From positions 640,001 through 704,000 of the forward strand of contig CBDUPA010000001.1 in assembly GCA_965368975.1 (NCBI GenBank): a stretch of 64,000 bases of DNA, given 5' to 3'. The notes under the pieces are model-generated. The model was not told where the DNA came from and did no database searches. It saw nothing but the letters and a program-made list of their open reading frames with translations. Position numbers and translations under genes: made by a program. This DNA is from an uncultured bacterium (GTDB lineage Bacteria; Acidobacteriota; Thermoanaerobaculia; Multivoradales; JAHZIX01). This document shows, piece after piece, positions 6,345-56,678 of the stretch. Every line of letters begins with the position of its first letter. The stretch's first letter is position 1.

Positions 6345-7003
6345 GGCCGCACCCCCTTGCGCCGACCGGCCTTCGTCGCCGAAGACTCGTCGCGCCGCCT
6401 GCGCTTCGACACCAGCTCGCGACACTTGCGCGCCCGCTTGTAGAGCCGGCTGCGCCACTTGTAGACCGCCGCGACCGTGCGGCCCGAGGCTTCGGCAACG
6501 TGCTCCACCGGGTGCTCGCGCACGAAGAAGAGGTCGAAGAGGTGGAGATCCCCGGCGTGCAAGCCGGCCTGGACACATAGGTAGACCTTGCGCAACTCGT
6601 CCTGGGACAGCGCGTTGTCTTCCGGTGTCCGGCGGACCTCGGCCATCGGCAAGTCCTCGGGCGCGCTGGGCTGCTCCCGCCAGGGACTGCGCCGCGAGCG
6701 CAGTACTTGCGCGGTGCGGATGCGCGCCACGTAGCTGATGAAGCCTTCGAGAGACAGGCGTTCCGGGTCCCAGCGCCGCAGCGTGCGTCCATCGTGCTGG
6801 AACAGCTCGACGAACACCTCCTGCACCATGTCCTCGACCTCCTGCCGTAGATTCCGGCTCGCCGAACTCCCCGTGCGCCAGCGGCGCAACATGCTGGCGA
6901 CGCTCCACTGGATGTCGGGGGTCAGAGCCGCGACGAGCTGCCGCTGCGCGCCTGGATCCCCTTCCAGGGCGAGGTCGACCAGCTCGCGCGTGAGGTCGGG
7001 CAT
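6341..7003 (-). CDS. ECF-type RNA polymerase sigma-70 factor
   Basis: Region 2 (EVEDMVQEVFVELF...LRRWDP) and region 4 (VEHVAEASGRTVAAVYKWRSRL). Confidence 0.85.
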   Translation of the reverse strand: MPDLTRELVDLALEGDPGAQRQLVAALTPDIQWSVASMLRRWRTGSSASRNLRQEVEDMVQEVFVELFQHDGRTLRRWDPERLSLEGFISYVARIRTAQVLRSRRSPWREQPSAPEDLPMAEVRRTPEDNALSQDELRKVYLCVQAGLHAGDLHLFDLFFVREHPVEHVAEASGRTVAAVYKWRSRLYKRARKCRELVSKRRRRDESSATKAGRRKGVRP

Positions 7004-41087: not shown

Positions 41088-41993
41088 TTACTCAGAAGGT
41101 TCGCAGGGCCAGTGATCTGGGCGGGGCAGACCTTCGGGAAGTTTGGTTTCTTCGTCACCACAGGCAGAGTCTAGTTGTACCTGAGTGAGGTCATAGGCCC
41201 CGCGCAGGTCCGCAGATCTCAGGTTCGCCTCACCCAGGTCCGCCCCGCTCAGGTTCGCCCCGCCCAGATCCGCCAAGACCAAGTCCGCCCCGTTCAGAGT
41301 CACCTCGCCCAGGTCCGCCAAGACCAAGTCCGCCCCGAGCAGGTTCGCCTCTCTCAGGTCCGCCCCGATCAAGTCCGCCCCGTTCAGAGTCACCCCGCCC
41401 AGGTCTGCCCCGCGCAGGTCTGTCCCGATCAGGTACGCCCCGTCCAGGTCCGCCTGGCTCAGGTCTGTCCCGATCAGGGTCGCCCCGCTAAGGGCCGCCC
41501 CTACCAGGGTCGCCTCGCCCAGGTCCGCCTCGCTCAGGTCCGCCGCCATCAGGTTCGGCCGAACCCCTCGCCCCTGCTCAATTTCGACGAACGCCAACAC
41601 TGCTTCTTGCCGAGCCCGGACAGTCGCCTTCGGCCTGCACTCGGTCCGCTCTGCCTCGCCTACCGCTAGCGCCCCAGCCGGACTCGAAGAGGCATCGCAG
41701 ATTTCGCCGTAGATGATGGCAATCAGCTGCGCGCGCCGAACGATCAACGTGTCCGGCTTCTGCTCGTTAATCTCTTCTCGCTGCTGGCGGACCTGAGTTT
41801 GTGTCTGCCAGCTCTGCACCACAAGGACAAGGAAGCCCAGTGCAGCAACCACCGTTGCTCCCAGCTCTACATAGAACTGCCTCTTCACGGCCCGCGCCTG
41901 CTCGGTCTGGAGCAGGCGGATCGCCGCTTCAAACGCTTCTCGCGTTACGGCCTCCACGGACTGCGCCGCCTCAGGCCTGAACAGCTTCCTCAA
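41088..41993 (-). CDS. Pentapeptide repeat protein with TM helix; possibly the 3' part of a gene broken by an in-frame stop
   Basis: More than 20 A(D/N/T)Lxx repeats; C-terminal LTQVQLDSACGDEETKLP; upstream ORF 42003-42269 is in the same frame. Confidence 0.8.
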   Translation of the reverse strand: MRKLFRPEAAQSVEAVTREAFEAAIRLLQTEQARAVKRQFYVELGATVVAALGFLVLVVQSWQTQTQVRQQREEINEQKPDTLIVRRAQLIAIIYGEICDASSSPAGALAVGEAERTECRPKATVRARQEAVLAFVEIEQGRGVRPNLMAADLSEADLGEATLVGAALSGATLIGTDLSQADLDGAYLIGTDLRGADLGGVTLNGADLIGADLREANLLGADLVLADLGEVTLNGADLVLADLGGANLSGADLGEANLRSADLRGAYDLTQVQLDSACGDEETKLPEGLPRPDHWPCEPSE

Positions 41994-43065: not shown

Positions 43066-45525
43066 TCAGTCTGCTCGCAGCGCCACCAGCGGATCGACGC
43101 GCGTCGCCCGCCGGGCCGGAATCAAGCAGGCGAAGACAGCGGCGACCAGGATGGCAAGGGCGGCGGTAGCGAAGGCACTGAGGGACGTCGGCGCTGTGTC
43201 GAAAAGCATGGCCTGGATCAGGCGGCTGAGGCCGAGGGCGGCGAGCAGGCCGAGGACGATGCCGTAGCCGGCCAGGCGCAGGCCCTGGTGCAGGATCAGG
43301 CGGAGGGTGGCACCGGCATCGGCGCCGAGGGCTTGGCGGATGCCGATCTCGTGCGTGCGCTGGGCGACGGTGTAGGACATGACGCCGTAGATGCCGACGA
43401 CCGCGAGTGCTAGCGCTAGTGCGGCGAACAGGCCGAGCAGCAAGGTGCTGAAGCGGCGGGCGGCGAGGTTGCCGGCCATCAGGTCGGCCATGGTGCGCAG
43501 GTCGGAAATTGGCTGCTCGGGATTGAGGGCCAGAATCTCGCGCCGTACCAGGGGACCGTAGCTGGCGGGATTACCGCTGGTGCGCACCACCCAGGCGGTG
43601 GGGAAGAGGTCGGCGAGGAAGCCGGTGGTGCCGTCGGAGGCTTGAGTGTCGGCGGTGAAGACGGTGGGAGTCGGGGGACGGTCGAGCGCCAGTTCGCTGA
43701 CGTCGCCGACCACGCCGACGATCAGGTCGGGCGGCGTGTCCGAGCCCGGTGGACCGGTGAGGAGACGACGGCCGATGGGGTTCTCGTCGGGGAAGTACTG
43801 CTCGGCCAGCGCCTCATTGACGACCACCACCGTTGGTGCGTCGAGAGAATCGTGGCTGTCGAAGGTGCGCCCGCGCAGCAGGGGGATTCCCATGGTGTGG
43901 AAGTAGTCGGCCGAGATCTGACGCCACTGGCCGCGACCTTGACGCGTTGCAGCATCTGCGGGCTCGCGGCCTTCGACGTCGAAAATGTACATCAGGCCGT
44001 GTTCGAGCGGCAGCATGGAAACAGTGGCGGCAGCTTCGATGCCAGGGTTCTGCAGCAGGCGCTCGACGGCGCGCTCGGTGAACCGGGTCACCTGAGACGT
44101 CGTCAGGCTGGCGGTTTCACCCTGCCTCTCGGGGGTGGGCGACATCTTGAAGGTCAGGATCTGCTCGTAGTCATAGCCCGGGTCGAGGGCGGTGACCTTG
44201 AGGAAGCTCTGCACCAGGAGTAGGGCCCCGACCAGGAGCACCAGGGCCAGTGCGACCTCGGCGACGACCAGGGCGCCCCGTCCTCGGCTACGCTGCCCGC
44301 CGGTGCCCTGGGCGCTCTTGAGCGCCGCTTGCAGATCGGCTTTGGAGCCGTGCCAGGCGGGGATCAGGCCGAACAGGATGCCGGTCAGTAGGGTGACGGC
44401 GAAGGTGAAGCCGATCACCAAGACATCGATCTCAATGCCGTCGAGACGCGGCAGGCCGCTCGGCGTCCAGCGCACCAGGACGCCCATGCCAGCGCGCGCT
44501 AGGAGCAGACCGAGGGCGCCGCCGGTCAGTGCCAAGACCAGGCTTTCGACCAGCAGCTGGCGTAGCAGCTGCATTCGGCTGGCACCTAGCGATGCGCGCA
44601 CGGCGATCTCGCGGCGGCGGCCACGGGCCCGCGCCAGCAGAAGGTTGGCGACGTTGGCGCAGGCGATCAGCAAGACGAGGCCGACGGCGCCGAGGAGCAT
44701 CAACAGTGCCGGCCGCACGTTACCGACGAGTTGATCGAGGTAAGGGCGTACGAAGATGCTGACGCCGTCGCGCAGCAGCTGTGGGTGCTCGGCGCGCAGC
44801 GATTCGGCGATGGCGGCCATCTCCGAGCGTGCTGCGTCGACGGAACGGTCCGGATGCAGGCGGGCGAGCGTGTAGTAAACGGCGGCGCCGCCTTGTGGAT
44901 TGAACTCGAGGTGCAGCGGTGTCCAGACATCGGCGTGGTTGATGAAGTCGAAGCCGTTCGCCATCACGCCGACCACGGTGTGTTCCTCGCCGCTCAGGCG
45001 GATCGGTCGGCCGACGATGGCGGGGTCGGCGGCGAAGCGCCGGCGCCACAGGCCATCGCTGATCATCGCCACCTTGGCGGCCCCGGGTTCGCCGTCCGCC
45101 TCGGTGAAGTCGCGTCCGACTTGTGGCGGCACGCCCAGGACGCGGAAGAAGGACGGCGAGACGCCCAGGCTGGCTACGCGCTCTGGGCGGTCACCAGCTG
45201 CCAGTTCTCCGGGCACCAGGTTGAGCCCGCCGCCGCGGCCTTCATACAGGGCCATGTCGCTGAAGCAGCCATTGTGCTCACGCCAGTAGAGGTACTGGCT
45301 GATCGTCACCGCATTGGACTGGCCGGCGGGCAACTGGCGGCCGATCTGCAGCAACTCTTCCGGTTGTGCGTAGGGCAGGGGGTCGAGGAGGACGCGATCA
45401 AGCACGCTGAACAGCGCGGTATTGGCGCCGATGCCGAGCGCCAGCACGGTCACGGCGACGGCGGTGAAGCCACGGTTCTTGGTCATCGATCGCAGGGCGT
45501 GGCGCAGATCCCGGGTGAAGCTCAT
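43066..45525 (-). CDS. ADOP-type duplicated ABC permease (MacB/FtsX-like)
   Basis: DLRHALRS..LALGIGANTALFS, LLIACANVANLLLAR..EIAVRASLGA, GIYGVMSY..RTHEIGIR.ALGA, PARRATRVDPLVALR. Confidence 0.93.
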   Translation of the reverse strand: MSFTRDLRHALRSMTKNRGFTAVAVTVLALGIGANTALFSVLDRVLLDPLPYAQPEELLQIGRQLPAGQSNAVTISQYLYWREHNGCFSDMALYEGRGGGLNLVPGELAAGDRPERVASLGVSPSFFRVLGVPPQVGRDFTEADGEPGAAKVAMISDGLWRRRFAADPAIVGRPIRLSGEEHTVVGVMANGFDFINHADVWTPLHLEFNPQGGAAVYYTLARLHPDRSVDAARSEMAAIAESLRAEHPQLLRDGVSIFVRPYLDQLVGNVRPALLMLLGAVGLVLLIACANVANLLLARARGRRREIAVRASLGASRMQLLRQLLVESLVLALTGGALGLLLARAGMGVLVRWTPSGLPRLDGIEIDVLVIGFTFAVTLLTGILFGLIPAWHGSKADLQAALKSAQGTGGQRSRGRGALVVAEVALALVLLVGALLLVQSFLKVTALDPGYDYEQILTFKMSPTPERQGETASLTTSQVTRFTERAVERLLQNPGIEAAATVSMLPLEHGLMYIFDVEGREPADAATRQGRGQWRQISADYFHTMGIPLLRGRTFDSHDSLDAPTVVVVNEALAEQYFPDENPIGRRLLTGPPGSDTPPDLIVGVVGDVSELALDRPPTPTVFTADTQASDGTTGFLADLFPTAWVVRTSGNPASYGPLVRREILALNPEQPISDLRTMADLMAGNLAARRFSTLLLGLFAALALALAVVGIYGVMSYTVAQRTHEIGIRQALGADAGATLRLILHQGLRLAGYGIVLGLLAALGLSRLIQAMLFDTAPTSLSAFATAALAILVAAVFACLIPARRATRVDPLVALRAD

Positions 45526-45691
45526 CAGCGTCTCCTTTCGGCCAGTAACCAGTGCCGGTAGCCAGGTTCTATCGTTTCCATACGGCGCGCGCGGCGGAGG
45601 GTTCTCTCTCGCGCCCGTCCTGGGGTGATTGCCGGGGACACGGTATGATCACCGCCTGTGGCAACTCAGGACGATTTCGCGAGGAGGCGAT

Positions 45692-47479
<1,788 letters not shown>

Positions 47480-47567
47480 CGGGAGCCGCGGCGAGGGTTA
47501 CAATCGCTGCGAGACTTCGAATCTGGTACGATCTGCAGGTTCCGACGTTCCCAGCGAGGTATCGACC

Positions 47568-48209
47568 GTGACCCCAAGCCCGGAATTGCATCTGCGGCCG
47601 CTCTTCCCGACCCTGCTCGGGCAGGCGGATTTTGCGGCGGCCGCGGACCTCAATCCGCAATTGGCAGCGTATCTCCTGCAATGCGAGCAGGCCGAAGTGG
47701 GCGTTGCGCCTCGCACCACCGTGCGTCACGGTTGGCAGAGTGAGCTGGGTTTTCTCGACCGAGACCTGGAAGAGCTGGCGCCGCTGCGCGCCTTCTTCAA
47801 TCGCTCGATCGAAGCCTGGTTGGCCGAGCACGGCCGCTTCACACCCAGCAGTCCGGCGCCCGCGGGGTGGACGTACAGCTACCAGGGTTGGGCGGTGGTT
47901 CTGCGCCAGGGTGGCTTCCAGCACCAGCATGTCCACACGCGCACCGACCTGGTCGGTGTCTACTGCGTTGCGACTCCTTGGCGGCAGGGAGAGGCCGCTT
48001 CCGGCCACCTGACCCTGATCGATCCACGCGGTGGTCGGCTGGCGAATCGGCTGGCCTGGGAGGCGGACCGAATCGAGATCGAGCCGGTACCGGGGCGTTT
48101 GCTCCTGTTCCCGAGCTTCTTGCCGCACCGCGTGGAAGAGGTTCGTCAGCCGGGAGCGCGGATCACCATCAACTTCGACGTCACCATTCAGCCGAACACA
48201 AGGAGATGA
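47568..48209 (+). CDS. Putative 2OG-Fe(II) oxygenase (TIGR02466-like)
   Basis: LFPT, GWQS, WAVV, HxH (HVH), LVGVY, DPR, LLLFPSFLPHRV, RITINFD. Confidence 0.87.
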   Translation: MTPSPELHLRPLFPTLLGQADFAAAADLNPQLAAYLLQCEQAEVGVAPRTTVRHGWQSELGFLDRDLEELAPLRAFFNRSIEAWLAEHGRFTPSSPAPAGWTYSYQGWAVVLRQGGFQHQHVHTRTDLVGVYCVATPWRQGEAASGHLTLIDPRGGRLANRLAWEADRIEIEPVPGRLLLFPSFLPHRVEEVRQPGARITINFDVTIQPNTRR

Positions 48210-48212
48210 ACC

Positions 48213-48734
48213 ATGCCAGTGTTCCGTGATGCCAAGGGCAACCACTACGAGATCAGTGACCAAGACCTGGAGCGCTTCAAGATCGAAGGCGCTCCGGAGC
48301 AGGCCGCGGGGCACCAAGTCGCGGCCTACAACTACGCTCCCGCCGCTGGTGCCGCCTACAACTACGCTGCCGGCGCCAACGCTGCTGGCACCAACGCTGC
48401 TGGCACCCCCCAGGGAGCTGCGTACAACTATGCCGGCGCCGCTCCGGGTGCTGCGTACAACTATGCTGCCAATCCAGCGTACTTCTGGGACCACCGCGCC
48501 CCGCAGCAGCAGGGAGCTGCCTACAACTACGCTGCCAATCCAGCGTATTTCTGGGATCACCGTGCGCCGCAACAGCAGGGAGCTGCGTACAACTACGCCG
48601 GCGCCGCTCCGGGAGCTGCCTACAACTATGCTCCCGCCGCTGGTGCCGCGTACAACTATGCAGCCCCCGACGTAGCGGCCTACAACTACGAAGGTGCCGC
48701 TGCGAAGCCGGATGACGCCGACAGCGAGGGCTGA
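48213..48734 (+). CDS. Putative multi-core RiPP precursor peptide (9x AAYNY, 2x YFW)
   Basis: AAGGAG RBS; charged ~35-aa leader MPVFRDAKGNHYEISDQDLERFKIEG; repeats vary at synonymous positions (tac aac tac/tat); flanked by oxygenase and P450. Confidence 0.85.
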   Translation: MPVFRDAKGNHYEISDQDLERFKIEGAPEQAAGHQVAAYNYAPAAGAAYNYAAGANAAGTNAAGTPQGAAYNYAGAAPGAAYNYAANPAYFWDHRAPQQQGAAYNYAANPAYFWDHRAPQQQGAAYNYAGAAPGAAYNYAPAAGAAYNYAAPDVAAYNYEGAAAKPDDADSEG

Positions 48735-49986
48735 GATCCGCGGGGGACGTGGGGCCCCGGGTGCGCTGAGCTTCTTCACCGAACTGCGCAGCCAGGGGGC
48801 CATCGCCAGCTTTGTTTGGCAGGGGCGGCCCGCCCGCCTGCTCAACGAGCCCTCGATCATCGAGCACGTGCTGGGAGACGGGCGGGGCAACTACCTCAAC
48901 CCGCCCCATGAGTATGCCGACCTGCAGCCGATCCTGACGCCGGCCGGCCGGCTGCTGCTGGGGCTGCACGGCCGTTCGCCGGCGCTCGCTGCTGCCGGCG
49001 AGCACTCGGCGGCGCGGGCGGAGTTCGAACGGTTGCTGCTACAGGCGGGCGACGACCTGTGCGAGCGCTTGCTACCCACTGTGCGGCCCGGCGCTGCGTC
49101 AGAGGGGCTGGTGCCGGATGCCCTCGAGCCACTGAAGGTCTCGATGCTGCAGTTCTTCACTCGCCTGCTGTTCGACGTCGAGGTCGACGACGGTGCCGCG
49201 ATAGCCTGCCAGCGGGCGGCCGCTTGGCTGGAGATCGAAAGCGTACGCCAGCGGGCCGGAGCTGCTCCTCGGCCAGGGGTGGAGCTGGCGGAGCGTCAGC
49301 AGCTGGAGTTCGCGTCGCTGGTGCTGGCCCAGCGCTTGCGGCAAGTTGGGCGACCCGTGGCCGCGGCCACGCAGGAGTTCGGGAGTTCCACCAGACGAGC
49401 GGTGATCCGCACGCTTCTCAATGGCTACAACGCAATGGCGACGACCCTGGCTTGGACCTGCGTCTTGCTGGCCGCGCATCCCGAGACCCAGGCTCGCTTG
49501 GTCTCGCAGGCGCGAGGGACCTTGCCGCGCCGGCGACCGGCGCTCCGCGATGTGGCGAGCTTGACGGAAGTCCGCTACGCGATCCAAGAAGCGGAACGGC
49601 TCTACCCGTCTGCTTGGCTCTTGGGGCGTACGGCGCTGCGCGACGAGAGCTTCGGCCGCTGGCATGTGCCGGCTGGGGCCCTGGTCTACATCTGCCCCTT
49701 CGCTCTGCACCGCGACCCGCGCTTCTGGCAGCAGCCAGACGCCTTCCTGCCGCTACGCTTCGCTGCTCCTGGAACTGCGCGTCCGCGGGGGACGTTCCTA
49801 CCGTTTGGTAGCGGACCTCGTCGATGTCCTGCCAGGTCGCTCAGTCAAGCGATGCTGGTGCTGCTACTCGCCGCTTTGTTGGCTCGCTACCAGCTTCGAG
49901 AGGTACCGGGGACGCAGGTGGTGCCGTGGCCGCTGATCTCTCTCCGGCCGCACCCCTCCGTGCCGCTGCGCCTGCTGCCACGGTAG
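48712..49986 (+). CDS. Cytochrome P450
   Basis: ExxR (EAERLYP), LHRDP.FW.PDAFLPLRF, heme motif FLPFGSGPRRCPA; I-helix LLNGYNAMATT. Start ATG 48712 overlaps the precursor by 23 nt (alternative GTG 48694). Confidence 0.92.
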   Translation: MTPTARAEIRGGRGAPGALSFFTELRSQGAIASFVWQGRPARLLNEPSIIEHVLGDGRGNYLNPPHEYADLQPILTPAGRLLLGLHGRSPALAAAGEHSAARAEFERLLLQAGDDLCERLLPTVRPGAASEGLVPDALEPLKVSMLQFFTRLLFDVEVDDGAAIACQRAAAWLEIESVRQRAGAAPRPGVELAERQQLEFASLVLAQRLRQVGRPVAAATQEFGSSTRRAVIRTLLNGYNAMATTLAWTCVLLAAHPETQARLVSQARGTLPRRRPALRDVASLTEVRYAIQEAERLYPSAWLLGRTALRDESFGRWHVPAGALVYICPFALHRDPRFWQQPDAFLPLRFAAPGTARPRGTFLPFGSGPRRCPARSLSQAMLVLLLAALLARYQLREVPGTQVVPWPLISLRPHPSVPLRLLPR

Positions 49987-49987
49987 T

Positions 49988-50083
49988 GCGAGCGCTTCGA
50001 CGTGCACGTGTTCCACGACGTCGTGCTGTGGAACGGCTCGATTCCGCTGTCGGTATTGGAGGTGGAGATCGATCGCCCTATCG
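49988..50083 (+). repeat. Direct repeat copy 2 (degenerate DUF885 3'-end remnant)
   Basis: Translates [29 protein letters not shown] versus [29 protein letters not shown]; separated from the P450 stop by 1 nt. Confidence 0.9.
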
Positions 50084-50193
50084 AGACCTCGGAGAAAGAG
50101 GCGACCACCGGCCCTGCCTGTGAGAAGGAGAGGGAGAGACGGAAAAGCCGGGGTCGCCGCAGAGGAGATGTCAGTGGAAGAAAAGCCCGGTCG

Positions 50194-51342
50194 TCAGAAC
50201 GACCAAGCGAGGCTGACGATGCTGAGCTCCGTCTCGACGGGGTCGTCGAGGATGATGCTGAGCGGGATGCTCTCAACCTGGCTGTATCCCTCGAACCACT
50301 GGTGCTCGAGCTTCGCTGTCAAGTTGGGTAGCACGTCGTAGCGTAGGCCGATCGTCTTGACCTCTTCCAGGGATTCCTCGAAGACGGTCAGAAACGGGAT
50401 CTCGAAGCGAAGATCGGCGTTCTCGTACCTCGCGGCAGCGTGCAACCGGTCGGTGAGGCGTACGTCGACTTCGGCGTACCAAGGAGTGAATCGACCACCA
50501 GCCCACGATCGCTGGGAGTACTCGATCCGAACCGTCCAGGGATCGAAGGCTGCGTCTACAGATGCGTAGAGCGTCTCCTCAGTGATGTCTTCGCCTCGCC
50601 GTAGAATCGTGTCCTGGACCTCCAGATGGTTGGCGCCAAGGCCGATTCGTAGACCCTCGACCGGAGTGTTGATCCAGAGCCAAGCTCCGATGGCGTTCTT
50701 GATGTCAGCTGTGGTGTAGTCGAGCGTAGCGTTGGCGAACTCAATACGTTCCCATTCGCCGTAGTAGAGGTGTCCGTCGAAGCTCCAGTCCCCGGTCGCT
50801 GCGCTCTCGTAGGTCAGGACGATCCCGTCGACCGAATCACTGGTCCAGGTTCCGTCACCATAGAAGGAGCCGGAAGGGCGGTAGAAGGGGAGCAGGGTGC
50901 CGACGTCCTTGATCTCGTTGTAGATACCGATGGGCAGTGGGACTCGGCCGACGCGCACTGAGAACTCGTCGGACAGAACCCGCCGGTAGAAGAGCCAGTC
51001 GATTTCGATGTCGTCGCGAAGCTCGTTCGAAGGACTCGTACCGACGGAATCGTTGGCCAGTTGCAGAACCAGCTCATTTCGATCAGCGAGAGCGAGCCGG
51101 AACTGCAGTGCGACGGTATGGAGGTCAGCCGTTCCGTTCTCGGAGACACCGCTGTAGTCGAAGTTCTCCGAGACGCCGTAGCCCCAGTTGATGAAGCCGA
51201 AGAAGTCGAAGTCGACCTGGTATTTCTCCGTGGCTGGCGGCGCCTCGGCCTCTGAGGTCATCGAAGTCTGAGCTACGACGGGGATCGATGGGGAGATTAG
51301 GCATAGAAAGCCCAAAATGAGCGATAATTGTATGTATCTCAT
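50194..51342 (-). CDS. Outer-membrane beta-barrel porin-like protein (paralog 1)
   Basis: Signal peptide, amphipathic strands, RVGRVPLPIGIYNEIKDVG, C-terminal LAWSF. Confidence 0.82.
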   Translation of the reverse strand: MRYIQLSLILGFLCLISPSIPVVAQTSMTSEAEAPPATEKYQVDFDFFGFINWGYGVSENFDYSGVSENGTADLHTVALQFRLALADRNELVLQLANDSVGTSPSNELRDDIEIDWLFYRRVLSDEFSVRVGRVPLPIGIYNEIKDVGTLLPFYRPSGSFYGDGTWTSDSVDGIVLTYESAATGDWSFDGHLYYGEWERIEFANATLDYTTADIKNAIGAWLWINTPVEGLRIGLGANHLEVQDTILRRGEDITEETLYASVDAAFDPWTVRIEYSQRSWAGGRFTPWYAEVDVRLTDRLHAAARYENADLRFEIPFLTVFEESLEEVKTIGLRYDVLPNLTAKLEHQWFEGYSQVESIPLSIILDDPVETELSIVSLAWSF

Positions 51343-51376
51343 GTCTGCTCCTGAGTGAATGTAGAAAGCCCGTTCG

Positions 51377-52534
51377 TCAGAACGACCAAGCGAGGCTGAC
51401 GATGCTGAGCTCCGTCTCAACGGGATCGTCGAAGAAGATGTTCAGCGGCTGATCTTCGATCTGACCGAACCCCTCGAACCATTGGTATTCGGCCTTGACC
51501 ACCAACTCTGGCAGGATCGCGTAGCGCAGGCCGACGCTGTAGAGGTCTTCGATCGTGCCGTCGAAGGTGGCGAAGAAGGGGACTTCGAAGTAGAGGTCGG
51601 CGGTCTCGAAGCGGCCCGCCAGGTTCAGGCGGTCGGTGAGCTTGACGTCGATCTCTGCGTACCAGGGAGTCCAGTCGCCGCCGGTGAAGGATCGCCGGGA
51701 ATACTCGACGCGCACGCTCACGGGGTCGAAGTTGGCGTCGATCGAGACGTAGCGCGTCTCCTCCGAGTCGGTCACGCCGGGCGCCAGGAACACGCCGCCC
51801 GTGGCGTGGAAGTGGTTGTACCCGAGGCCCACGCGCAGTCCGTCGACGGGCGTGTTGATCCAAGTCCAGATGCCGCCAGCGTCCTCGATGTCGGCCACGT
51901 CGAAGGAAAGGTCGCCGCCCGACGTCTCGATGCGCTCCCACTCTCCGTAGTAGAGATGCGTGTCGAAGCTCCAGTCGCGGGTGCGGTCGGACTCGTAAGT
52001 GAAGACGATGCCGTCGACAGAGTCGCTGGTCCAAGTGCCGTCACCGTAGTAGACGCCCGAGGCACGGTAGAACGGCAGCAGGGTGCCGACGTCCTTGACC
52101 TCGTTGTAGATGCCGATCGGCAGGGGAACACGACCGACCCGGAAGTACGCATGATCGCTCAGCGTTCGACGGTAGTAGAGCCAGTCGAGTTCCAGGTCAT
52201 CGCGCAGCTCGTTCGACGGGCTCGTGCCGACGCGTTCATTGGCGAGTTGGAGTACGAATTCGTCCTTGTTGGTCGGGTTCAGCCGAAACTGCAGGGCGAC
52301 GGTGTGAAGATCGGCGGTGCCGTCTTCGGGGACGCCTCGATAGGCATGACCATCGGCGATGCCGTAGCCCCAGTTGATGAAGCCGAAGAAGCTGAAGGCG
52401 ACCTTGGAGCCTGCCTGAACCGGGTCGGCAGAGTCGTCCAGACTGGCCGGGTTTTGGGCGCTGCTCGGGACCACGGCCAGCACGGTCGCGAGGGACGTGA
52501 GAATCACGATGAGAGCGGACTTCTGACAGATCAT
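51377..52534 (-). CDS. Outer-membrane beta-barrel porin-like protein (paralog 2)
   Basis: GGAGG RBS, signal peptide, same motifs as paralog 1, identical C-terminus DDPVETELSIVSLAWSF. Confidence 0.82.
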   Translation of the reverse strand: MICQKSALIVILTSLATVLAVVPSSAQNPASLDDSADPVQAGSKVAFSFFGFINWGYGIADGHAYRGVPEDGTADLHTVALQFRLNPTNKDEFVLQLANERVGTSPSNELRDDLELDWLYYRRTLSDHAYFRVGRVPLPIGIYNEVKDVGTLLPFYRASGVYYGDGTWTSDSVDGIVFTYESDRTRDWSFDTHLYYGEWERIETSGGDLSFDVADIEDAGGIWTWINTPVDGLRVGLGYNHFHATGGVFLAPGVTDSEETRYVSIDANFDPVSVRVEYSRRSFTGGDWTPWYAEIDVKLTDRLNLAGRFETADLYFEVPFFATFDGTIEDLYSVGLRYAILPELVVKAEYQWFEGFGQIEDQPLNIFFDDPVETELSIVSLAWSF

Positions 52535-52600
52535 GACGCCTCCTGTTTGGGCGATAGAAAGGATCAAACAATGAAAGTAGGCACACGACTCCCGCATGGG

Positions 52601-52668
52601 TGACATTGTCAACCATCGAATTGGTTTCGAGGCGCACCAACTTCCAGCCACTAGAGCACTTGTGCTCT
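52601..52668. promoter_or_regulatory. Two palindromes in the AT-rich region upstream of the porin pair
   Basis: TGACA-T-TGTCA (52601-52611) and AGAGCAC-TT-GTGCTCT (52653-52668). Confidence 0.4.
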
Positions 52669-52927: not shown

Positions 52928-54976
52928 TTACCACCAGATCTCGGAATCCGGGTTCATCCACTGTTCGCGGGAGAATTGTTCCGGGCCCGTGCGGCGATGG
53001 AAGGTACCGTCTTCTCGGGCCTGAGCGGCGATCCGGTCGAGCTCCTGGTGAATCTGGTCGAGTTCCTGGTCCGTCAAGGGGCCGGTGCCGGGTGGCGGTG
53101 CAGTGGCACCGCTGGGAGGTGGCGGCCCGGTGTCTGGATCGCTGGCTGGTGGCGGGGTACTTGGTGGCGGAGTACCTGGTGGCGGGGTACCTGGCGGTGG
53201 GGCGCTGGGAGGAGGAGAGCTGGAATCGCTGCTCGGGTCAGGTGGCGGCGGTGGGCAGTGGGCGGGAGGGGTCTCGATCAGGGCTTCGAGGACGGTGATC
53301 TGCTGCTGCAGGAAGTGGTGGTTGCGGTCGGCGTCGGCGGCGACGGTCGGGGCTTCCCGGTCGAATTCGCCGGCCGAGGTGAAGCGACGGGTCGCTTGTT
53401 GCCACAGATCCAGGGTCCGGCTCAGGTCGCAGTCCTGGGGATCACGCTCAGCGACGCCCCACAGGAAGAGTGCGACGCCGTCGTTGAAGTGGGCTTCGGC
53501 CAGGCGCGGGGCCAGTTGCAGGGTCTCTTGGTAGAGATCGTGGGCCTCGGAATAGCGACCGTCGAGCGTCGCCGAGCGGGCCAGGTTGTAGCTCGGGATC
53601 TCGGGCTGAATCTCGTAGGCCAGGCTACGATGGTAGTGCACCGCGGCTTCGCTATGCTCGCTGGCGTCGTCGCGCTCGATACCCCGTTCGTTCTCGATGT
53701 AGGCCTGCCAGGCGTCGTCGCTGCAGCCCAAGCCGAGCACGAGCAGGAGCAAGCCGGCGAAGGGAGGGGTGGTAGATGCGCGCCGCGTTCCTAGACGCTC
53801 GATCTCGAAGCGAGACCGTAGGCGCCGACCGAGGTGGCCGATCACCAGGGTGTCGAGCAGGACGATGGCCAGGACCAGCAGGAGTGGAGTTCTGCCCAGG
53901 TCCTCGGCGGCGGCTTCGCTGTCACCTTCCGAGTTCTCGCTGTCGCCTGTGGAGCTGAACTGGGTCTGGGAGATCCGGCGCTGAGCGGGACGCTCGCGGA
54001 TCGTTGTGGCCAGCGCGTTGGCCAAGACGTCCGGTGTGCCGTCTCCCAGGTCGCTACCGTCGGTGCGGTAGAAATCGCCGTCGGTGCGGTTGGCGATGCG
54101 ACGGAAGTGCTCGTCTTCGCGCCGCGACGTGTACTCGACCAGCACACGGCGCTCGTCGGGTTCCTTGCCGTCGACGACGTCGCGGTAGTCGTAGAGTTTG
54201 TGCCAGCGGCCGTCCGTGCCGCCGATCGCCACCGCATGCACCGGGACACCTCGGCGCGCCAGGGCGTCGAGTGAGGCCGCGTAGTCGAGCTCGAAGGGCA
54301 ATTCACCATCTCCCAGAAACACCACCTGTAAGTCGCCGCTGCGCTCGTCTTCGTGGCCGGCGAAAGGCAGGATGGCGTCGAGGGCGCTGGCCAGGTTGGA
54401 GCCGGAGTTCTGGTACATCGTGTACCACTCGACGGTGCGCAGCGCTTCGCTCAAGGCCACGCGGTCGTCGGTGATCGGTAGCAGGATGGTGGCGGTACCG
54501 CTGTAGCTGAGCATGCCGAAGTGGTGGTTCGGCAGCTCGGCGGTGAGACGCTGGCCGAGGTAGCGGGCGAGTTCGAAGCGGTCCCACTCCTCGATCTCTT
54601 CGCTACCGTCCACGGCCTCGCTGGTTTCCGCAAGCTCGGGGCCGAGCCCCGGCGGCAGGTCTAGATCCTCGGAGGTCATGCTGTGCGAGGCGTCGAAGAC
54701 GAGCAGCACGCGTCCATTCGCCGCCTCGGCTTCGATCTCACCCAACCGCTTGGGGCCGGCAGCGGCGTAGATGAGCAGCACGCCGGCGAGGAGCAACAGC
54801 CACAGGTGTGCCCGCAGCGAGCCGCGGCCGTGGACGGTCAGCGCACGGCGGAAGCGGGGGGACACGTGGAGGTGCAGCCAGTCGACGGACCGTCGCTGCT
54901 GGCGGCCGAACCACCAGGCGCCGAGCAGCCAGGGGACAAGCAGCCACAGCAATTCCGGACGTTCGAGGACGGTCAT
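52928..54976 (-). CDS. VWA + TPR protein (BatB/BatC-like fusion) with Pro-rich tail
   Basis: N-terminal TM helices, MIDAS DASHSM, PITDD, GDGE; TPR (YNLAR, AHFNDG); PPPGT repeats; ends in WW. Confidence 0.85.
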   Translation of the reverse strand: MTVLERPELLWLLVPWLLGAWWFGRQQRRSVDWLHLHVSPRFRRALTVHGRGSLRAHLWLLLLAGVLLIYAAAGPKRLGEIEAEAANGRVLLVFDASHSMTSEDLDLPPGLGPELAETSEAVDGSEEIEEWDRFELARYLGQRLTAELPNHHFGMLSYSGTATILLPITDDRVALSEALRTVEWYTMYQNSGSNLASALDAILPFAGHEDERSGDLQVVFLGDGELPFELDYAASLDALARRGVPVHAVAIGGTDGRWHKLYDYRDVVDGKEPDERRVLVEYTSRREDEHFRRIANRTDGDFYRTDGSDLGDGTPDVLANALATTIRERPAQRRISQTQFSSTGDSENSEGDSEAAAEDLGRTPLLLVLAIVLLDTLVIGHLGRRLRSRFEIERLGTRRASTTPPFAGLLLLVLGLGCSDDAWQAYIENERGIERDDASEHSEAAVHYHRSLAYEIQPEIPSYNLARSATLDGRYSEAHDLYQETLQLAPRLAEAHFNDGVALFLWGVAERDPQDCDLSRTLDLWQQATRRFTSAGEFDREAPTVAADADRNHHFLQQQITVLEALIETPPAHCPPPPPDPSSDSSSPPPSAPPPGTPPPGTPPPSTPPPASDPDTGPPPPSGATAPPPGTGPLTDQELDQIHQELDRIAAQAREDGTFHRRTGPEQFSREQWMNPDSEIWW

Positions 54977-54989
54977 CTGAGGCGCCTTG

Positions 54990-55040
54990 TCATCGTAGAG
55001 GTCGTCTCATCGTAGAGGTCGCCTCATCGTAGAGGCCGGC
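54990..55040. repeat. Three tandem 17-bp copies of the batA-like gene 3' end including its stop codon
   Basis: tcatcgtagaggtcgtc / tcatcgtagaggtcgcc / tcatcgtagaggccggc. Confidence 0.8.
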
Positions 55041-56082
55041 GTAGCACGATGCCGGTCAGCAGCAGGTAGAGGGTAAAGAGCGGCAACGCGGCGAGCGCCA
55101 GCCAGCGGCGGTACGACCGACGGATCTCGACCGTCGTGACCTCCAGCGGTGCGCTCTCCAGCCGCGACAGATGACCGAAGATGGTTTCCAGGGCACCGGC
55201 GTCGGTGGCGCGGAAGTAGTGGCCGTCGGCCAGCTCGGCGATGCGTTGCAGCTGGGCTTCGTCGAGCGAGGTGAGGTAGGGATCGTCCTCGCCGCCGAGC
55301 TTGTCGCCTTCGAACATGACCTCCATGGGCTCGTCGCCACCCAACCCGATGGTGTAGAGGCGGATCTGCAGATGGTGCACGAAGCGAGCGGCCAGCTCAG
55401 GCTCGATCCCTTCGTTGGACTCGCCGTCGGTGATCAGGATCAGTGCCTGGTCACGCTGTGGCCGGCGTGCGCGTTCGAGCAGCTGGGCGCCGGCCAGCAG
55501 TGCGTCGCCAATGGCGGTGCCGCCGCTCTTGCTCGGTGAGATGGTGTGCACGGTGACACCGCCGAGCAGCGCGCGCAGCGACGGACGGTCGGTGGTCAGC
55601 GGGCTCTGGACATAGGCGTCCTTACCGAAGATCAGCAGGCCGATGCGGTGGCCACTGGCACGGTCGAGGAAGTCACCGGCGATGCGGCGCAGGGCTTCCA
55701 TGCGGTTGGGCGGGAAGTCTTCGGCCAGCATGCTGAGGGAGACATCGAGCACCAGCAGGACGTCGATGCCTTCGTTTTCCATTAGCTCCAGCTCGGTCGA
55801 ACGGTGCGGCCCGGCGATACCCAGGATCAGGGCTGCGAGGAGCAGAACCTCGACGGCCAAGCTGAGGGAAGGCAGACCTCGGTGTCGCATCAACCACAGC
55901 GGGCCTGGAGGTCGAGAAGAGGGCCCTGCAGCCTGCAGTTGCAGCGCGCCGTATGGTAGCTGGTCGCGCCGCCGCAGCCGCCAGCGCTGCCAGGCGTAGA
56001 GTGGCAGTAAGAGCAGAACCCAGAGCCAGCGCGGATCGTCGAGTTGGAGCTCGAACGGCAGACCGAGGATGCCTGGGGCCAT
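55024..56082 (-). CDS. batA: BatA-like VWA domain membrane protein
   Basis: EGIDVLLVLDVSLSMLAEDF.PNR, SPLTTD, GTAIGDAL, LITDGESN, LYTIG, YFRATD. Confidence 0.88.
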   Translation of the reverse strand: MAPGILGLPFELQLDDPRWLWVLLLLPLYAWQRWRLRRRDQLPYGALQLQAAGPSSRPPGPLWLMRHRGLPSLSLAVEVLLLAALILGIAGPHRSTELELMENEGIDVLLVLDVSLSMLAEDFPPNRMEALRRIAGDFLDRASGHRIGLLIFGKDAYVQSPLTTDRPSLRALLGGVTVHTISPSKSGGTAIGDALLAGAQLLERARRPQRDQALILITDGESNEGIEPELAARFVHHLQIRLYTIGLGGDEPMEVMFEGDKLGGEDDPYLTSLDEAQLQRIAELADGHYFRATDAGALETIFGHLSRLESAPLEVTTVEIRRSYRRWLALAALPLFTLYLLLTGIVLRRPLR

Positions 56083-56678
56083 CACGAGGTCTCCTCGGCG
56101 TCCTGAGTGGAGGACCGGCGTCCGCGCTGGCCTTCGACCAGCCAGCGGGCGTCGCGGCAGATCCCGCGGAAGGCGCGTGGACTGGGCTCGTCGCGGCCGA
56201 ATTGCAAGCCGGCCAGCTGCAAGAGGAGCTTGGCGATCTTGCCATCTCCCAGGCGGCTGCCGATCTCTCGTGCCGTCAAGTGGTCGAGACGTTCGCGGCG
56301 GTCCGCCTCGAAGTGGTCGCGTAACATGGCGGCCAGCTGGTGGCAGCCCTGGCGCGGGTCGGCCGTGAACTCTTCGGCCAGCGCTTCGATACGGCTGCCG
56401 ATGCCACCGGCGCGTGCTCGCGGAGGCGGCGGTGGTTTGGCGGCGCGCGGCTTGGCTTTGACTCGCTTGCCCAGCCGGTAGAGTCCCCAGAGCACCAGCA
56501 GCACGGCGAGCAGCAGCAAGACGAGGCAACCGCATCCGACCATCCAGGGCGCGACGGCCTTGGGCAGATGCAGTGGGTCGGCCAGGCCCGCGGGAAGTTC
56601 CGGTGGCGCGTCTGGTGCCAGCGGGGGGTTCGATGTGGTCAGGGCGTTCGGTGTTGTCAGGATGTTTAGGGCCATCAT
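56082..56678 (-). CDS. Single-TM membrane protein of the MoxR/Bat operon (DUF4381-like)
   Basis: One TM helix followed by a Pro/Arg linker and LT..EI motif; overlapping start/stop junctions with neighbours. Confidence 0.7.
   Translation of the reverse strand: MMALNILTTPNALTTSNPPLAPDAPPELPAGLADPLHLPKAVAPWMVGCGCLVLLLLAVLLVLWGLYRLGKRVKAKPRAAKPPPPPRARAGGIGSRIEALAEEFTADPRQGCHQLAAMLRDHFEADRRERLDHLTAREIGSRLGDGKIAKLLLQLAGLQFGRDEPSPRAFRGICRDARWLVEGQRGRRSSTQDAEETS

Follow-up and report, generated by a model that had tools for sequence, protein, structure and literature searches.

A repetitive precursor gene between oxygenase and P450 genes

In the window (the whole stretch of DNA analyzed, 64,000 nucleotides), three genes follow one another on the plus strand: a gene for a 213-aa 2OG-Fe(II) oxygenase, PF13759/TIGR02466-like by profile match (47568..48209), a precursor ORF of 173 aa plus stop, which has a family of homologs (48213..48734), and a gene for a 424-aa cytochrome P450 (48712..49986; Pfam PF00067, E 5.7e-38). 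The oxygenase stop codon is 3 nt upstream of the precursor ATG, the Shine–Dalgarno sequence AAGGAG (48200..48205, plus strand), read directly from the sequence, lies 7 nt 5′ of the same ATG, and the P450 start, either ATG 48712 or the alternative GTG 48694, gives an overlap with the precursor 3′ end of 23 or 41 nt, respectively; judging by the sequence, the three genes appear to be translationally coupled. Ahead of this cassette, a consensus scan found the promoter-like site CTGACG-17-TACAAT (47476..47504, plus strand), which is the sole match in 45300–50400 (mean of 0.3 in shuffled sequences) and a pattern match alone.

Among 10 nearby ORFs scanned against Pfam, the genes adjoining the precursor are only those of the 2OG oxygenase and the P450. 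A DUF885 protein (Pfam) is encoded upstream of the cassette in the window; it was rejected as a cassette gene, being found in the window only and having the promoter-like site in between. An ADOP permease was rejected as a dedicated exporter, as it is also encoded beside one other precursor locus (L004) and is absent from the other loci; this permease family has many paralogs in Acidobacteria. The genome has a GC content of 66%, and there are numerous long spurious ORFs overlapping this region, e.g., a 663-aa minus-strand ORF at 46899–48890.

The architecture given in the original prediction, namely, the leader MPVFRDAKGNHYEISDQDLERFKIEG, nine AAYNY units, two 22-aa units, and an acidic tail, is exact in the translation of 48213–48734. 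The leader (residues 1–36, MPVFRDAKGNHYEISDQDLERFKIEGAPEQAAGHQV; 48213..48320, plus strand) follows the consensus of 54 leaders and scores 64.1 bits with a leader HMM that includes this same sequence. The core region (48321..48692, plus strand) comprises AAYNY[A/E] units with nine start positions (48321, 48351, 48417, 48450, 48516, 48582, 48615, 48645, and 48675), along with a pair of AYFWDHR units (48477 and 48543), all on the plus strand; eight of the former are AAYNYA and one is AAYNYE, with G or V preceding each. Two tandem 66-nt units (48447..48578, plus strand; nucleotides 48447–48512 and 48513–48578) encode an identical stretch of 22 aa (GAAYNYAANPAYFWDHRAPQQQ) and have GAAYNYAGAAP on both sides of the pair. 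Repeat analysis of the DNA also identified a 15-nt tandem repeat of 2.9 copies, which encodes the NAAGT spacer (48364..48407, plus strand). The protein closes with the acidic C-terminal tail GAAAKPDDADSEG (48693..48731, plus strand), ending in KPDDADSEG. No signal peptide or hydrophobic segment was seen in the translation by eye, and a look-up of the precursor in the ESM Atlas gave no usable match.

The 66-nt units are 88% identical at the DNA level, and each of their eight mismatches is a synonymous change of the third codon position; the other two pairs of units with identical peptides have one and two mismatches, all silent. The earlier suggestion that selection acts on the peptide is thus upheld by 11 synonymous differences out of 11 between identical peptide units, and, taken together with the ribosome-binding site and the homologs, these differences point to a real, selected gene. 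The near-mirror order of the units, also proposed at the outset, holds for the peptide but not for the DNA, where repeat analysis revealed direct repeats, with 2.3 copies of a 66-nt unit in tandem and a second repeat, of 60 nt, at a distance of 165 nt, and found no inverted repeats in the precursor gene. Since the DNA repeats are only direct, the mirror order is a by-product of nested direct duplications, and its interpretation as a functional palindrome was rejected. The precursor gene is present in a single copy in the genome. A public contig of 295 nt, which may come from the source sample, is identical (100%) to 48540–48834 and covers part of the repeats; no RNA runs with the region were listed in a search of public sequencing runs.

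The leader family and the aromatic triads

Judged by profile searches, the precursor family is rare and unannotated: a search of 1.84 billion proteins yielded 40 cluster representatives at E<=1e-3, and none of eight members scanned matched any Pfam or NCBIfam model. Homologs reach E 4.5e-11 when searched for with the single sequence and 5e-54 when searched for with a profile. Inspection of all 40 representatives showed that 38 start with the leader, while two are N-terminally truncated core fragments; of the leader-bearing ones, 28 have at least three triads of the form [Y/H]-x-[Y/W], six have one or two, and four have none. The leader consensus is M-[PA]-[LIV]-FRD-x-x-G-N-[FLH]-[YF]-x-IP...L..[YF][RK]V.GELPE. 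As originally expected, the leader is kept among homologs, positions M1, F4, R5, D6, G9, and L19 being common to 54 sequences, about a quarter of which were retrieved by patterns that themselves demand these residues. The family thereby combines features by which RiPP precursors are recognized, that is, a kept leader joined to a hypervariable core, with modifying enzymes (P450, 2OG oxygenase, or radical SAM and S8 proteins) encoded next to it.

Loci of the repeat type occur in Acidobacteriota, Myxococcota, Cyanobacteria, and Alphaproteobacteria, and leader-bearing repeat precursors were found in four phyla besides that of the window, adjoining a P450 in three of them. Within the class, the leader HMM identified three convincing genomes out of 401, the window's own included, and 12 further matches with E 0.003–0.05 in longer ORFs. 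A search of genome contigs with the first precursor alignment gave five pattern matches, none of them confirmed. The first degenerate DNA pattern retrieved 12 stretches, 11 of which are real leaders and one a chance match (L031, 7.4 bits); the second retrieved 30, comprising nine already known, two new (L060 with 56.6 bits and the borderline L049 with 27.6 bits), and 19 at chance level (at most 22.4 bits, in short or unrelated ORFs).

Relatives of the leader are also present in four MAGs of Desulfobacterota, where they score 33–34.5 bits with an HMM built without them (vs. 7.4 for the chance match). The three of these loci covered by the neighbor scan adjoin genes of radical SAM enzymes and S8 subtilases; the fourth, L034, sits at the end of a short contig. 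This use of the leader beside radical SAM enzymes and S8 proteases points to a processed peptide. The S8 subtilases are limited to the loci of the radical-SAM-type relatives: Pfam neighbor scans of eight repeat-type loci revealed no dedicated protease near the precursor, and the P450-type loci likewise have no exporter, immunity gene, or RiPP recognition element as a conserved neighbor.

In the repeat-type members, nearly every aromatic residue of the core falls into a [Y/H]-x-[Y/W] triad, of which there are 3 to 23 per protein, and in many members all core Tyr and Trp do so, e.g., P0027 (seven Y, seven W, seven YTW) and P0038 (six Y, six W, six YIW). The core of the window precursor has 11 triads, nine YNY and two YFW, vs. 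3.7 expected from 500 core shuffles (z 4.5), and across the family the enrichment reaches z 9.6; a three-residue aromatic motif of the cyptide type is hence enriched in nearly all repeat members. The rest of the core varies widely. Residues between and around the triads change among homologs, and the spacers are free in length and sequence across approximately 55 family members, while the triad and the preceding Ala or Ser are kept and Pro is also frequent near the triads. The number of repeats varies even in close relatives, as in L026 and L027, of 467 and 399 aa, respectively.

The partner enzymes

The proposal that the flanking oxygenase and P450 are partners of the precursor agrees with the gene neighborhoods. 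A P450 gene is located directly downstream of the precursor in all 13 repeat-type loci that have downstream sequence (window, L004, L005, L023–L027, L030, L032, L037, L038/L041, and L060; L028 stops at the contig end), and a PF13759 gene adjoins the precursor or lies within 3.3 kb in nine out of nine loci with Tyr-Asn-Tyr/Trp triads. The precursor and the P450 are paired and co-conserved, as is characteristic of cyptide-type systems. PF13759 genes were found beside none of the four Y-x-W loci without Asn and not beside the single His-Asn-Tyr locus, and one database protein (P0037) is an in-frame fusion of the oxygenase and the precursor. No PF13759 gene is present on the precursor contig of Roseovarius, though all its triads contain Asn, which weakens the idea of Asn hydroxylation.

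The window P450 contains the motifs EAERLYP and FGSGPRRCP, seen in the alignment, and is the only P450 detected with the family model in the 7.1-Mb genome; in Roseovarius, the precursor-linked P450 is the best of three matches to this model (249.9 vs. 173.1 and 140.6 bits). In a scan of nine family P450s against NCBIfam, the ApyO model (NF050147) ranks first for four and second or third for the remaining five, at 85.2 bits for the window P450 and 74–135 bits over the family, far short of the equivalog cut-off of 525 bits; a model of terpene P450s (CYP170-type) outscores it in five cases out of nine, including that of the window. The best solved relatives of the window P450 are 7wzl, CYP170A1, and CYP3A4. 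As these are not known peptide cross-linkers, the family P450 could, judging from its relatives, hydroxylate rather than couple. A tree of 12 P450s resolved only three close pairs and none of the deep branches that would bear on co-descent of the P450 with the core type. The predicted complex of the P450, heme, and precursor residues 1–52 scored 0.14, below the mark of 0.32, a value that speaks neither for nor against it.

The window oxygenase scores 52.6 bits with Pfam PF13759 (cut-off 27) and 56.7 bits with TIGR02466, which is under the cut-off of 62.5, while its ortholog from L025 reaches 75.1 bits. An alignment of 21 homologs shows no variation at H119, H121, H123, D152, H187, and R198; the profile matches and these candidate metal and 2OG ligands together mark the protein as a member of the PF13759/TIGR02466 oxygenases. 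Its AF2 model (pLDDT 86.7) has the double-stranded beta-helix fold, the nearest folds being the uncharacterized proteins 3bvc and 2rg4, followed by protein prolyl hydroxylases. Oxygenases of PF13759/TIGR02466 are widespread, being frequent in marine bacteria and cyanophages as well; we know of no characterized member of PF13759.

Proposed product and its relation to known systems

We consider it probable that the ORF is the precursor gene of a compact RiPP-type cassette, in which the P450 would cross-link the triads and the oxygenase would hydroxylate. What the sequences show is the gene with its family and its linked neighbors, the conserved leader, and the triad rule; from these we infer the leader dependence, every chemical step, and the fate of the product as follows. 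The “FRD” leader would mark the peptide for the modifying enzymes, and the P450 would move along the core, where oxidative coupling of the paired aromatic side chains within every [Tyr/His]-x-[Tyr/Trp] triad would give a three-residue biaryl or aryl-ether cyclophane, 11 of them in the window protein. The PF13759 oxygenase would hydroxylate the peptide, most plausibly at the middle Asn of the Tyr-Asn-Tyr/Trp triads, and the Ala/Gly/Pro spacers would be expendable linkers. With a slight lean, we expect that general peptidases trim these spacers, yielding many small cross-linked units and a second, YFWD-type unit; nearly as plausibly, the product would be one long multi-ring peptide. Weighing against this reading are the frequency of Pro near the triads, together with the closeness of the oxygenase fold to prolyl hydroxylases, and the finding that P450-type loci share no protease, exporter, immunity gene, or recognition element. 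The spacers had been proposed to be recognition or cleavage sites, but they vary freely in length and sequence across homologs, and such hypervariable stretches are unlikely to be specific recognition sites. The prediction of two product types remains plausible, since YNY and YFW motifs recur together in several homologs.

Of the known systems, cyptides are similar in that a ribosomal precursor adjoins a P450 and the unit is aromatic-x-aromatic (YPW, YxY, YxYW; PMC12288599, PMC11659900, PMC12797325). Three-residue Y-x-W and Y-x-Y biaryl cyclophanes are established products of P450s there (PMC12288599, PMC11659900), and known cyptide systems include cittilin, the YPW peptides of MciB/SlpB/MpoB, KwwB, and AscB. 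The examples described in these sources come from actinobacteria and carry a single short core at the C-terminus, whereas the family considered here has 3–23 repeats in proteins of 92–467 aa, as well as another leader, often a 2OG oxygenase, and a distribution over four different phyla or classes. By its profile and PDB matches, the P450 looks like an E-class enzyme and may well differ from those of the cyptide clusters C01–C08 (PMC12797325). Published mining pipelines limited ORFs to 5–60 aa or demanded C-terminal aromatics (PMC11659900), and long repetitive precursors would therefore be missed.

ApyO, whose model tops the NCBIfam matches for four out of nine family P450s, joins the two Tyr residues of YLY and forms Trp–Tyr and C–O links in variants as well (PMC13703928). 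Its substrate ApyA (aminopyruvatide, Burkholderia) has a single C-terminal YLYD, and its cluster also encodes a radical SAM enzyme and an MNIO, whereas no such gene flanks the window precursor among the 10 nearby ORFs scanned. In the WprA/WprB system, too, the precursor repeats a three-residue motif and a single enzyme cross-links every copy, and many radical SAM cyclophane clusters have no protease and no known mature product (PMC12957482). Unlike the family P450, WprB is a radical SAM enzyme making aryl-to-aliphatic links, and WprA has one or three repeats and an unrelated leader.

The resemblance to cyanobactins and fungal dikaritins, on which the original prediction drew, is that one gene encodes many copies of a short core. 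In those precursors, conserved recognition or cleavage sequences accompany each core and are served by dedicated proteases or Kex2 sites. The analogy does not extend this far, as the spacers are not conserved in about 55 family members and no linked protease was found at the eight loci scanned; since P450-type loci have no conserved protease or exporter, excision into separate cores is no more than a possibility. NHLP and Nif11-type leaders provide another parallel, in which one conserved leader is combined with hypervariable cores and different maturases. The “FRD” leader is similarly found beside a P450 with or without a 2OG oxygenase, or beside a radical SAM enzyme and an S8 protease, but has no sequence relation to them (no Pfam or NCBIfam match in eight family members). 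More tentatively, the “FRD leader” could define a RiPP superfamily not yet described: with no recognizable RiPP recognition element, one leader would serve two or more unrelated enzyme systems (a P450, with PF13759 or on its own; radical SAM with S8), the P450 branch installing up to 23 biaryl rings per polypeptide and PF13759 hydroxylating the bridging Asn.

A true multi-core precursor, whose AAYNY and AYFWD units are cut at defined flanks by a dedicated protease to give two small products, is in our opinion rather unlikely. The presence of 3 to 23 repeats of the same motif, varying between close relatives, fits the dosage of small units, two motif types occur together in several homologs, a DUF885 protein is encoded upstream in the window, and the S9 protease WprP2 (PMC12957482) sets a precedent, as it cleaves repeated three-residue cyclophane motifs uniformly. 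However, the homolog spacers, conserved neither in sequence nor in length, offer no recognizable cleavage signal, no protease is conserved at P450-type loci, and the DUF885 gene is confined to the window, behind the promoter-like site. It is improbable that the enzymes only hydroxylate (Tyr to DOPA; Pro or Asn), producing a ring-free peptide rich in catechols that serves in metal binding, adhesion, or redox reactions: although the best profile and structure matches of the P450 are hydroxylating enzymes and the oxygenase fold is closest to prolyl hydroxylases, the strict i/i+2 pairing of aromatics and the replacement of one Tyr by Trp or His would be left unexplained, and ApyO-like similarity is seen in all nine P450s scanned.

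Plant extensins are secreted, glycosylated wall proteins that form isodityrosine and involve a prolyl-4-hydroxylase-type 2OG oxygenase and peroxidase cross-linking. Their YxY motifs (PMC4769139, PMC4510346), together with the P4H-type oxygenase and oxidative Tyr coupling, make them a chemical analogy only, as the window precursor lacks a signal peptide and is paired with a P450. The same parallel, a repetitive Tyr-x-Tyr protein with a P4H-like 2OG oxygenase and an oxidative coupling enzyme, would suit a structural or storage polypeptide with Tyr cross-links between molecules, as in extensins or dityrosine spore walls, but this we regard as very unlikely, given the missing signal peptide and hydrophobic segment, the cytoplasmic action of the P450, and the conserved leader, which elsewhere lies beside radical SAM enzymes and S8 proteases and indicates a processed peptide. 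A chance open frame or assembly artifact in a GC-rich, low-complexity stretch deserves next to no weight. The 66% GC, the long spurious overlapping ORFs, and the coverage of 295 nt only by the independent contig would allow for it, but the silent-only repeat differences, the ribosome-binding site, the 40 database representatives, and the leader-bearing precursors in four other phyla, P450-adjoining in three, speak against it, and the conservation of both the peptide and its gene neighbors across phyla effectively refutes it.

The cross-linked peptide of a RiPP-type cassette is thus the preferred reading, and the precursor most likely yields a peptide natural product whose family has not been described before. 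No description of the precursor family was found in the literature searched, the scope of which did not extend to the supplements of mining papers and the 2023 JACS/Angewandte mining papers, where such precursors could be listed; the words repeat, multicore, tandem, and Acidobacter are absent from the searched text of the 2024 review (PMC11659900), and the GpeC preprint has no repeat or multicore terms.

If the tentative superfamily reading is true, its P450 branch would be the first many-core or many-ring P450 system and the first such system known beyond Actinobacteria and Burkholderia, and PF13759/TIGR02466 proteins would gain their first function. Biaryl peptides made by P450s attract interest as rigid, protease-resistant scaffolds, e.g., with darobactin-like or arylomycin-like chemistry, and aminopyruvatide reportedly inhibits proteases. 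The family would add a directly searchable leader, a P450 possibly capable of many rounds of action on a single substrate, and a first functional handle on the PF13759/TIGR02466 oxygenases, while the middle and flanking positions, which vary naturally, would map enzyme tolerance. Two carriers of the family, Microseira wollei NIES-4236 and Roseovarius aestuarii KCTC 22174, are cultured, making it directly testable.

Architecture of the precursor and its family

Translation of 48213-48734 (+) yields a protein of 173 aa organized exactly as the original prediction described: a charged leader (MPVFRDAKGNHYEISDQDLERFKIEG), a core with nine AAYNY units, two identical 22-aa units (GAAYNYAANPAYFWDHRAPQQQ) in the middle, with GAAYNYAGAAP on either side, and an acidic C-terminal tail. 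The ORF is single-copy in its genome; AAGGAG is located 7 nt 5' of the ATG, and the stop codon of the upstream gene, 3 nt 5' of it. The synonymous codon differences between copies, also predicted, were confirmed: the two 66-nt units share 88% identity, with eight out of eight differences being third-position and synonymous, and three further differences, again all synonymous, are spread over two more pairs of units with identical peptide sequence. Since 11 out of 11 differences are silent, comparison of the repeats argues for selection at the peptide level, as opposed to recent slippage or assembly collapse. The predicted "mirror" arrangement of the units holds for the peptide; the DNA, however, contains direct repeats only and no inverted ones, and thus we read this order as a probable by-product of nested direct duplications.

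A single-sequence search retrieved six relatives of the precursor; a profile retrieved 12 from a word-indexed collection and 40 family representatives (E ≤ 1e-3) among 1.84 billion cluster representatives. ESM Atlas yielded nothing for the precursor, and no Pfam or NCBIfam model matched any of the eight family members scanned. The conserved N-terminal segment, the FRD leader, opens 38 out of 40 representatives, the remaining two being N-terminally truncated core fragments. Its consensus over 54 leaders is M-[PA]-[LIV]-F-R-D-x-[ED]-G-N-[FLH]-[YF]-x-I-P-x-[ED]-x-L-x-x-[YF]-[RK]-V-x-G-E-L-P-E, about one quarter of these leaders having been retrieved by patterns that forced F4, R5, D6, G9, I14, and L19.

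Past the leader, the cores are wholly divergent save for one rule, the i/i+2 pairing of aromatic residues, with triads YNY, YNW, HNY, YFW, YIW, YLW, YTW, YQW, YEW, HHY, and YLY/YCY/YWY seen in the family. At least three triads are present in 28 of the 38 leader-bearing representatives, one or two in six, and none in four; enrichment relative to composition-preserving shuffles is as high as z 9.6, and in several proteins all core Tyr and Trp lie inside triads. Complete precursors examined contain 3 to 23 copies in 92 to 467 aa, and spacers between triads show no conservation across the family.

Genomic linkage of the cassette

In the window, the precursor is preceded by a gene for a 213-aa 2OG-Fe(II) oxygenase (47568-48209; PF13759, 52.6 bits), which is TIGR02466-like with a score slightly under the TIGR02466 cut-off, and followed by a cytochrome P450 gene (from 48712 or 48694 to 49986) overlapping the precursor end. 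A promoter-like site lies immediately 5' of the oxygenase gene, and the unit ends at a convergent gene that carries a terminator-like hairpin. Searched with a model of the family's own P450s, the 7.1-Mb genome yields no P450 other than that of the cassette.

Loci were collected from a metagenome scan, whole-genome searches, stretches fetched by place, and two degenerate-pattern scans covering 185,579 species genomes. In 13 out of 13 repeat-type loci (those with repetitive-core precursors) whose sequence extends past the precursor, the next gene 3' of it is a P450 of the same kind: the window, two Thermoanaerobaculia MAGs from its taxonomic order (L004, L005), five metagenome contigs (L023-L027), two Pyrinomonadaceae MAGs (L030, L032), an Archangium MAG (L037), Roseovarius aestuarii KCTC 22174 (L038/L041), and Microseira wollei NIES-4236 (L060). 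This count leaves aside a fourteenth locus, from a cyanobacterial MAG (L028), which is cut off by the end of its contig.

The PF13759 oxygenase is found in nine out of nine loci with Tyr-Asn-Tyr/Trp triads, immediately upstream in eight; in Microseira it lies 1.9 kb past the P450 on the opposite strand, beyond two inserted ORFs without Pfam matches. These ORFs (226 and 256 aa; L060 2667-4151) may be an insertion disrupting the usual gene order. Adjacent PF13759 genes are absent from all four Tyr-x-Trp loci without Asn, and from the Roseovarius His-Asn-Tyr locus, where such genes occur on other contigs only. One database protein (P0037, 354 aa) joins the PF13759 oxygenase in frame to an FRD-leader precursor with nine YNYE units, and may be either a genuine fusion of enzyme and substrate or a read-through in gene calling.

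The outer flanks vary by locus (citrate synthase, patatin, ferritin-like, histidine kinase, integrase with TIR genes); therefore, these two or three genes form a small mobile cassette. In the window, neither the more distant upstream DUF885 gene nor the downstream genes are conserved partners. The cassette is rare, occurring in three out of 401 genomes of the class, the window's own included, and in none of five other genomes of the same taxonomic family.

In Roseovarius, the pair resides on an apparent island (L041 5746-14435), the 271-aa precursor having 17 His-Asn/Asp-Tyr triads, with a tyrosine integrase upstream and, downstream, a TIR and FGE-sulfatase-domain protein, an SLOG-cluster2 protein, and a second TIR protein; the TIR/SLOG-cluster2 genes resemble a defence system. 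The DUF885 protein of the window (45629-47479 (+), 593.8 bits), absent beside the cassette at other loci, has an HEAVPGHH motif and, by eye, a lipoprotein-like N-terminal hydrophobic stretch followed by Cys. ADOP-family duplicated ABC permeases are encoded less than 3 kb from the cassette in the window (43066-45525 (-); TIGR03434, 905 bits) and directly 3' of the P450 in L004 (10096-12624 (-)); this family has many paralogs in Acidobacteria, and hence the proximity could be coincidental. Two ORFs convergent with the cassette (50194-51420 (-), 408 aa; 51377-52651 (-), 424 aa) match nothing in Pfam or NCBIfam at E ≤ 0.001. The window also contains an aerotolerance-operon-type BatA/VWA/TPR cluster (52928-56535 (-)) and a 301-aa pentapeptide-repeat protein (41088-41993 (-)).

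Proposed roles of the two enzymes

The most economical reading of the cassette is a RiPP-type pathway, in which the FRD leader would deliver the peptide to the enzymes, the P450 would cross-link [Y/H]-x-[Y/W] triads one by one, and the oxygenase would hydroxylate the peptide. The window P450 carries the ExxR and Cys-ligand motifs, and its closest solved relatives are 7wzl, CYP170A1, and CYP3A4. Of nine family P450s scanned, four have the NCBIfam ApyO model as their top hit and five as their second or third, in all cases with scores far under the cut-off. A P450 tree of 12 sequences resolved three close pairs but not the deep branches. ApyO is reported to couple both Tyr of a YLY motif, to form Trp-Tyr C-N and Tyr-Tyr C-O links in altered substrates, and to require only the last 10 substrate residues (PMC13703928). 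Three-residue biaryl rings formed by P450s at YPW, YxY, and YxYW are established for "cyptides" (PMC12288599; PMC11659900).

The predicted oxygenase structure is a double-stranded beta-helix (pLDDT 86.7), closest to two uncharacterised PF13759 structures (3bvc, 2rg4) and then to the protein-acting prolyl hydroxylases PHD2, EF-Tu-modifying Pseudomonas P4H, and Dictyostelium PHD; His119, His121, His123, Asp152, His187, and Arg198 do not vary among 21 homologs. Our first guess for the hydroxylated residue is Asn, because of the co-occurrence of the oxygenase with Asn triads (9/9 vs. 0/4). The Roseovarius locus is a counter-example, and Pro is the alternative target.

Three rival explanations are less likely. 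The enzymes might hydroxylate the peptide only, without cross-linking, a reading against which the aromatic pairing in the cores and the ApyO similarity speak; the precursor might be an extensin-like cross-linked structural protein; or the ORF might be spurious, against which stand the silent repeat differences and the recurrent P450 linkage. In the RiPP-type reading, the rings may afterwards be cut apart: hypervariable linkers and repeat numbers differing even among close relatives suggest dosage of a small unit, whereas no protease is linked to the P450-type cassette, which speaks against small-unit excision. Many radical SAM cyclophane clusters are reported likewise to have no linked protease, their products being not yet known (PMC12957482).

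The literature searched gave no description of the FRD leader, of repetitive P450 substrates, or of a peptide-modification role of PF13759, although supplementary lists and some key mining papers may still contain such precursors. Mining schemes outlined in PMC11659900 accepted only precursors of 5-60 aa or with C-terminal aromatic motifs, and in one case covered actinobacterial genomes only. We class the cassette as a variant of P450-modified RiPPs.

The leader in Desulfobacterota

FRD-leader peptides with non-repetitive cores were found in four Desulfobacterota MAGs (Syntrophobacteraceae, Desulfobacca, Syntrophorhabdus): L033 1053-1394 and 1415-1672; L036 6494-6835 and about 6216-6473 (-); L035 2919-3218; L034 1500-1799. 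In the Syntrophobacteraceae loci, they form two tandem copies. The leaders score 33-34.5 bits, vs. 7.4 bits for a chance pattern match, with an HMM built before these sequences were known. At the three loci with enough flank (L033, L035, L036), the neighbours are radical SAM enzymes of the HxsC-like and B12-dependent types, along with S8 subtilases and either a methyltransferase or a glycosyltransferase-like protein. Such radical SAM/S8 surroundings are a typical RiPP setting, and the recurrence of the FRD leader there supports the precursor N-terminus being a leader combined with different maturases. The Desulfobacterota loci look like a separate, undescribed RiPP cluster type with a common leader.

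A borderline relative of the leader (27.6 bits), whose membership in the family is uncertain, occurs in a Dehalococcoidia MAG (L049 about 2150-2401 (+)); its tail is proline-rich and non-repetitive, and a large AAA_16 ATPase-domain protein is encoded 3' of it.
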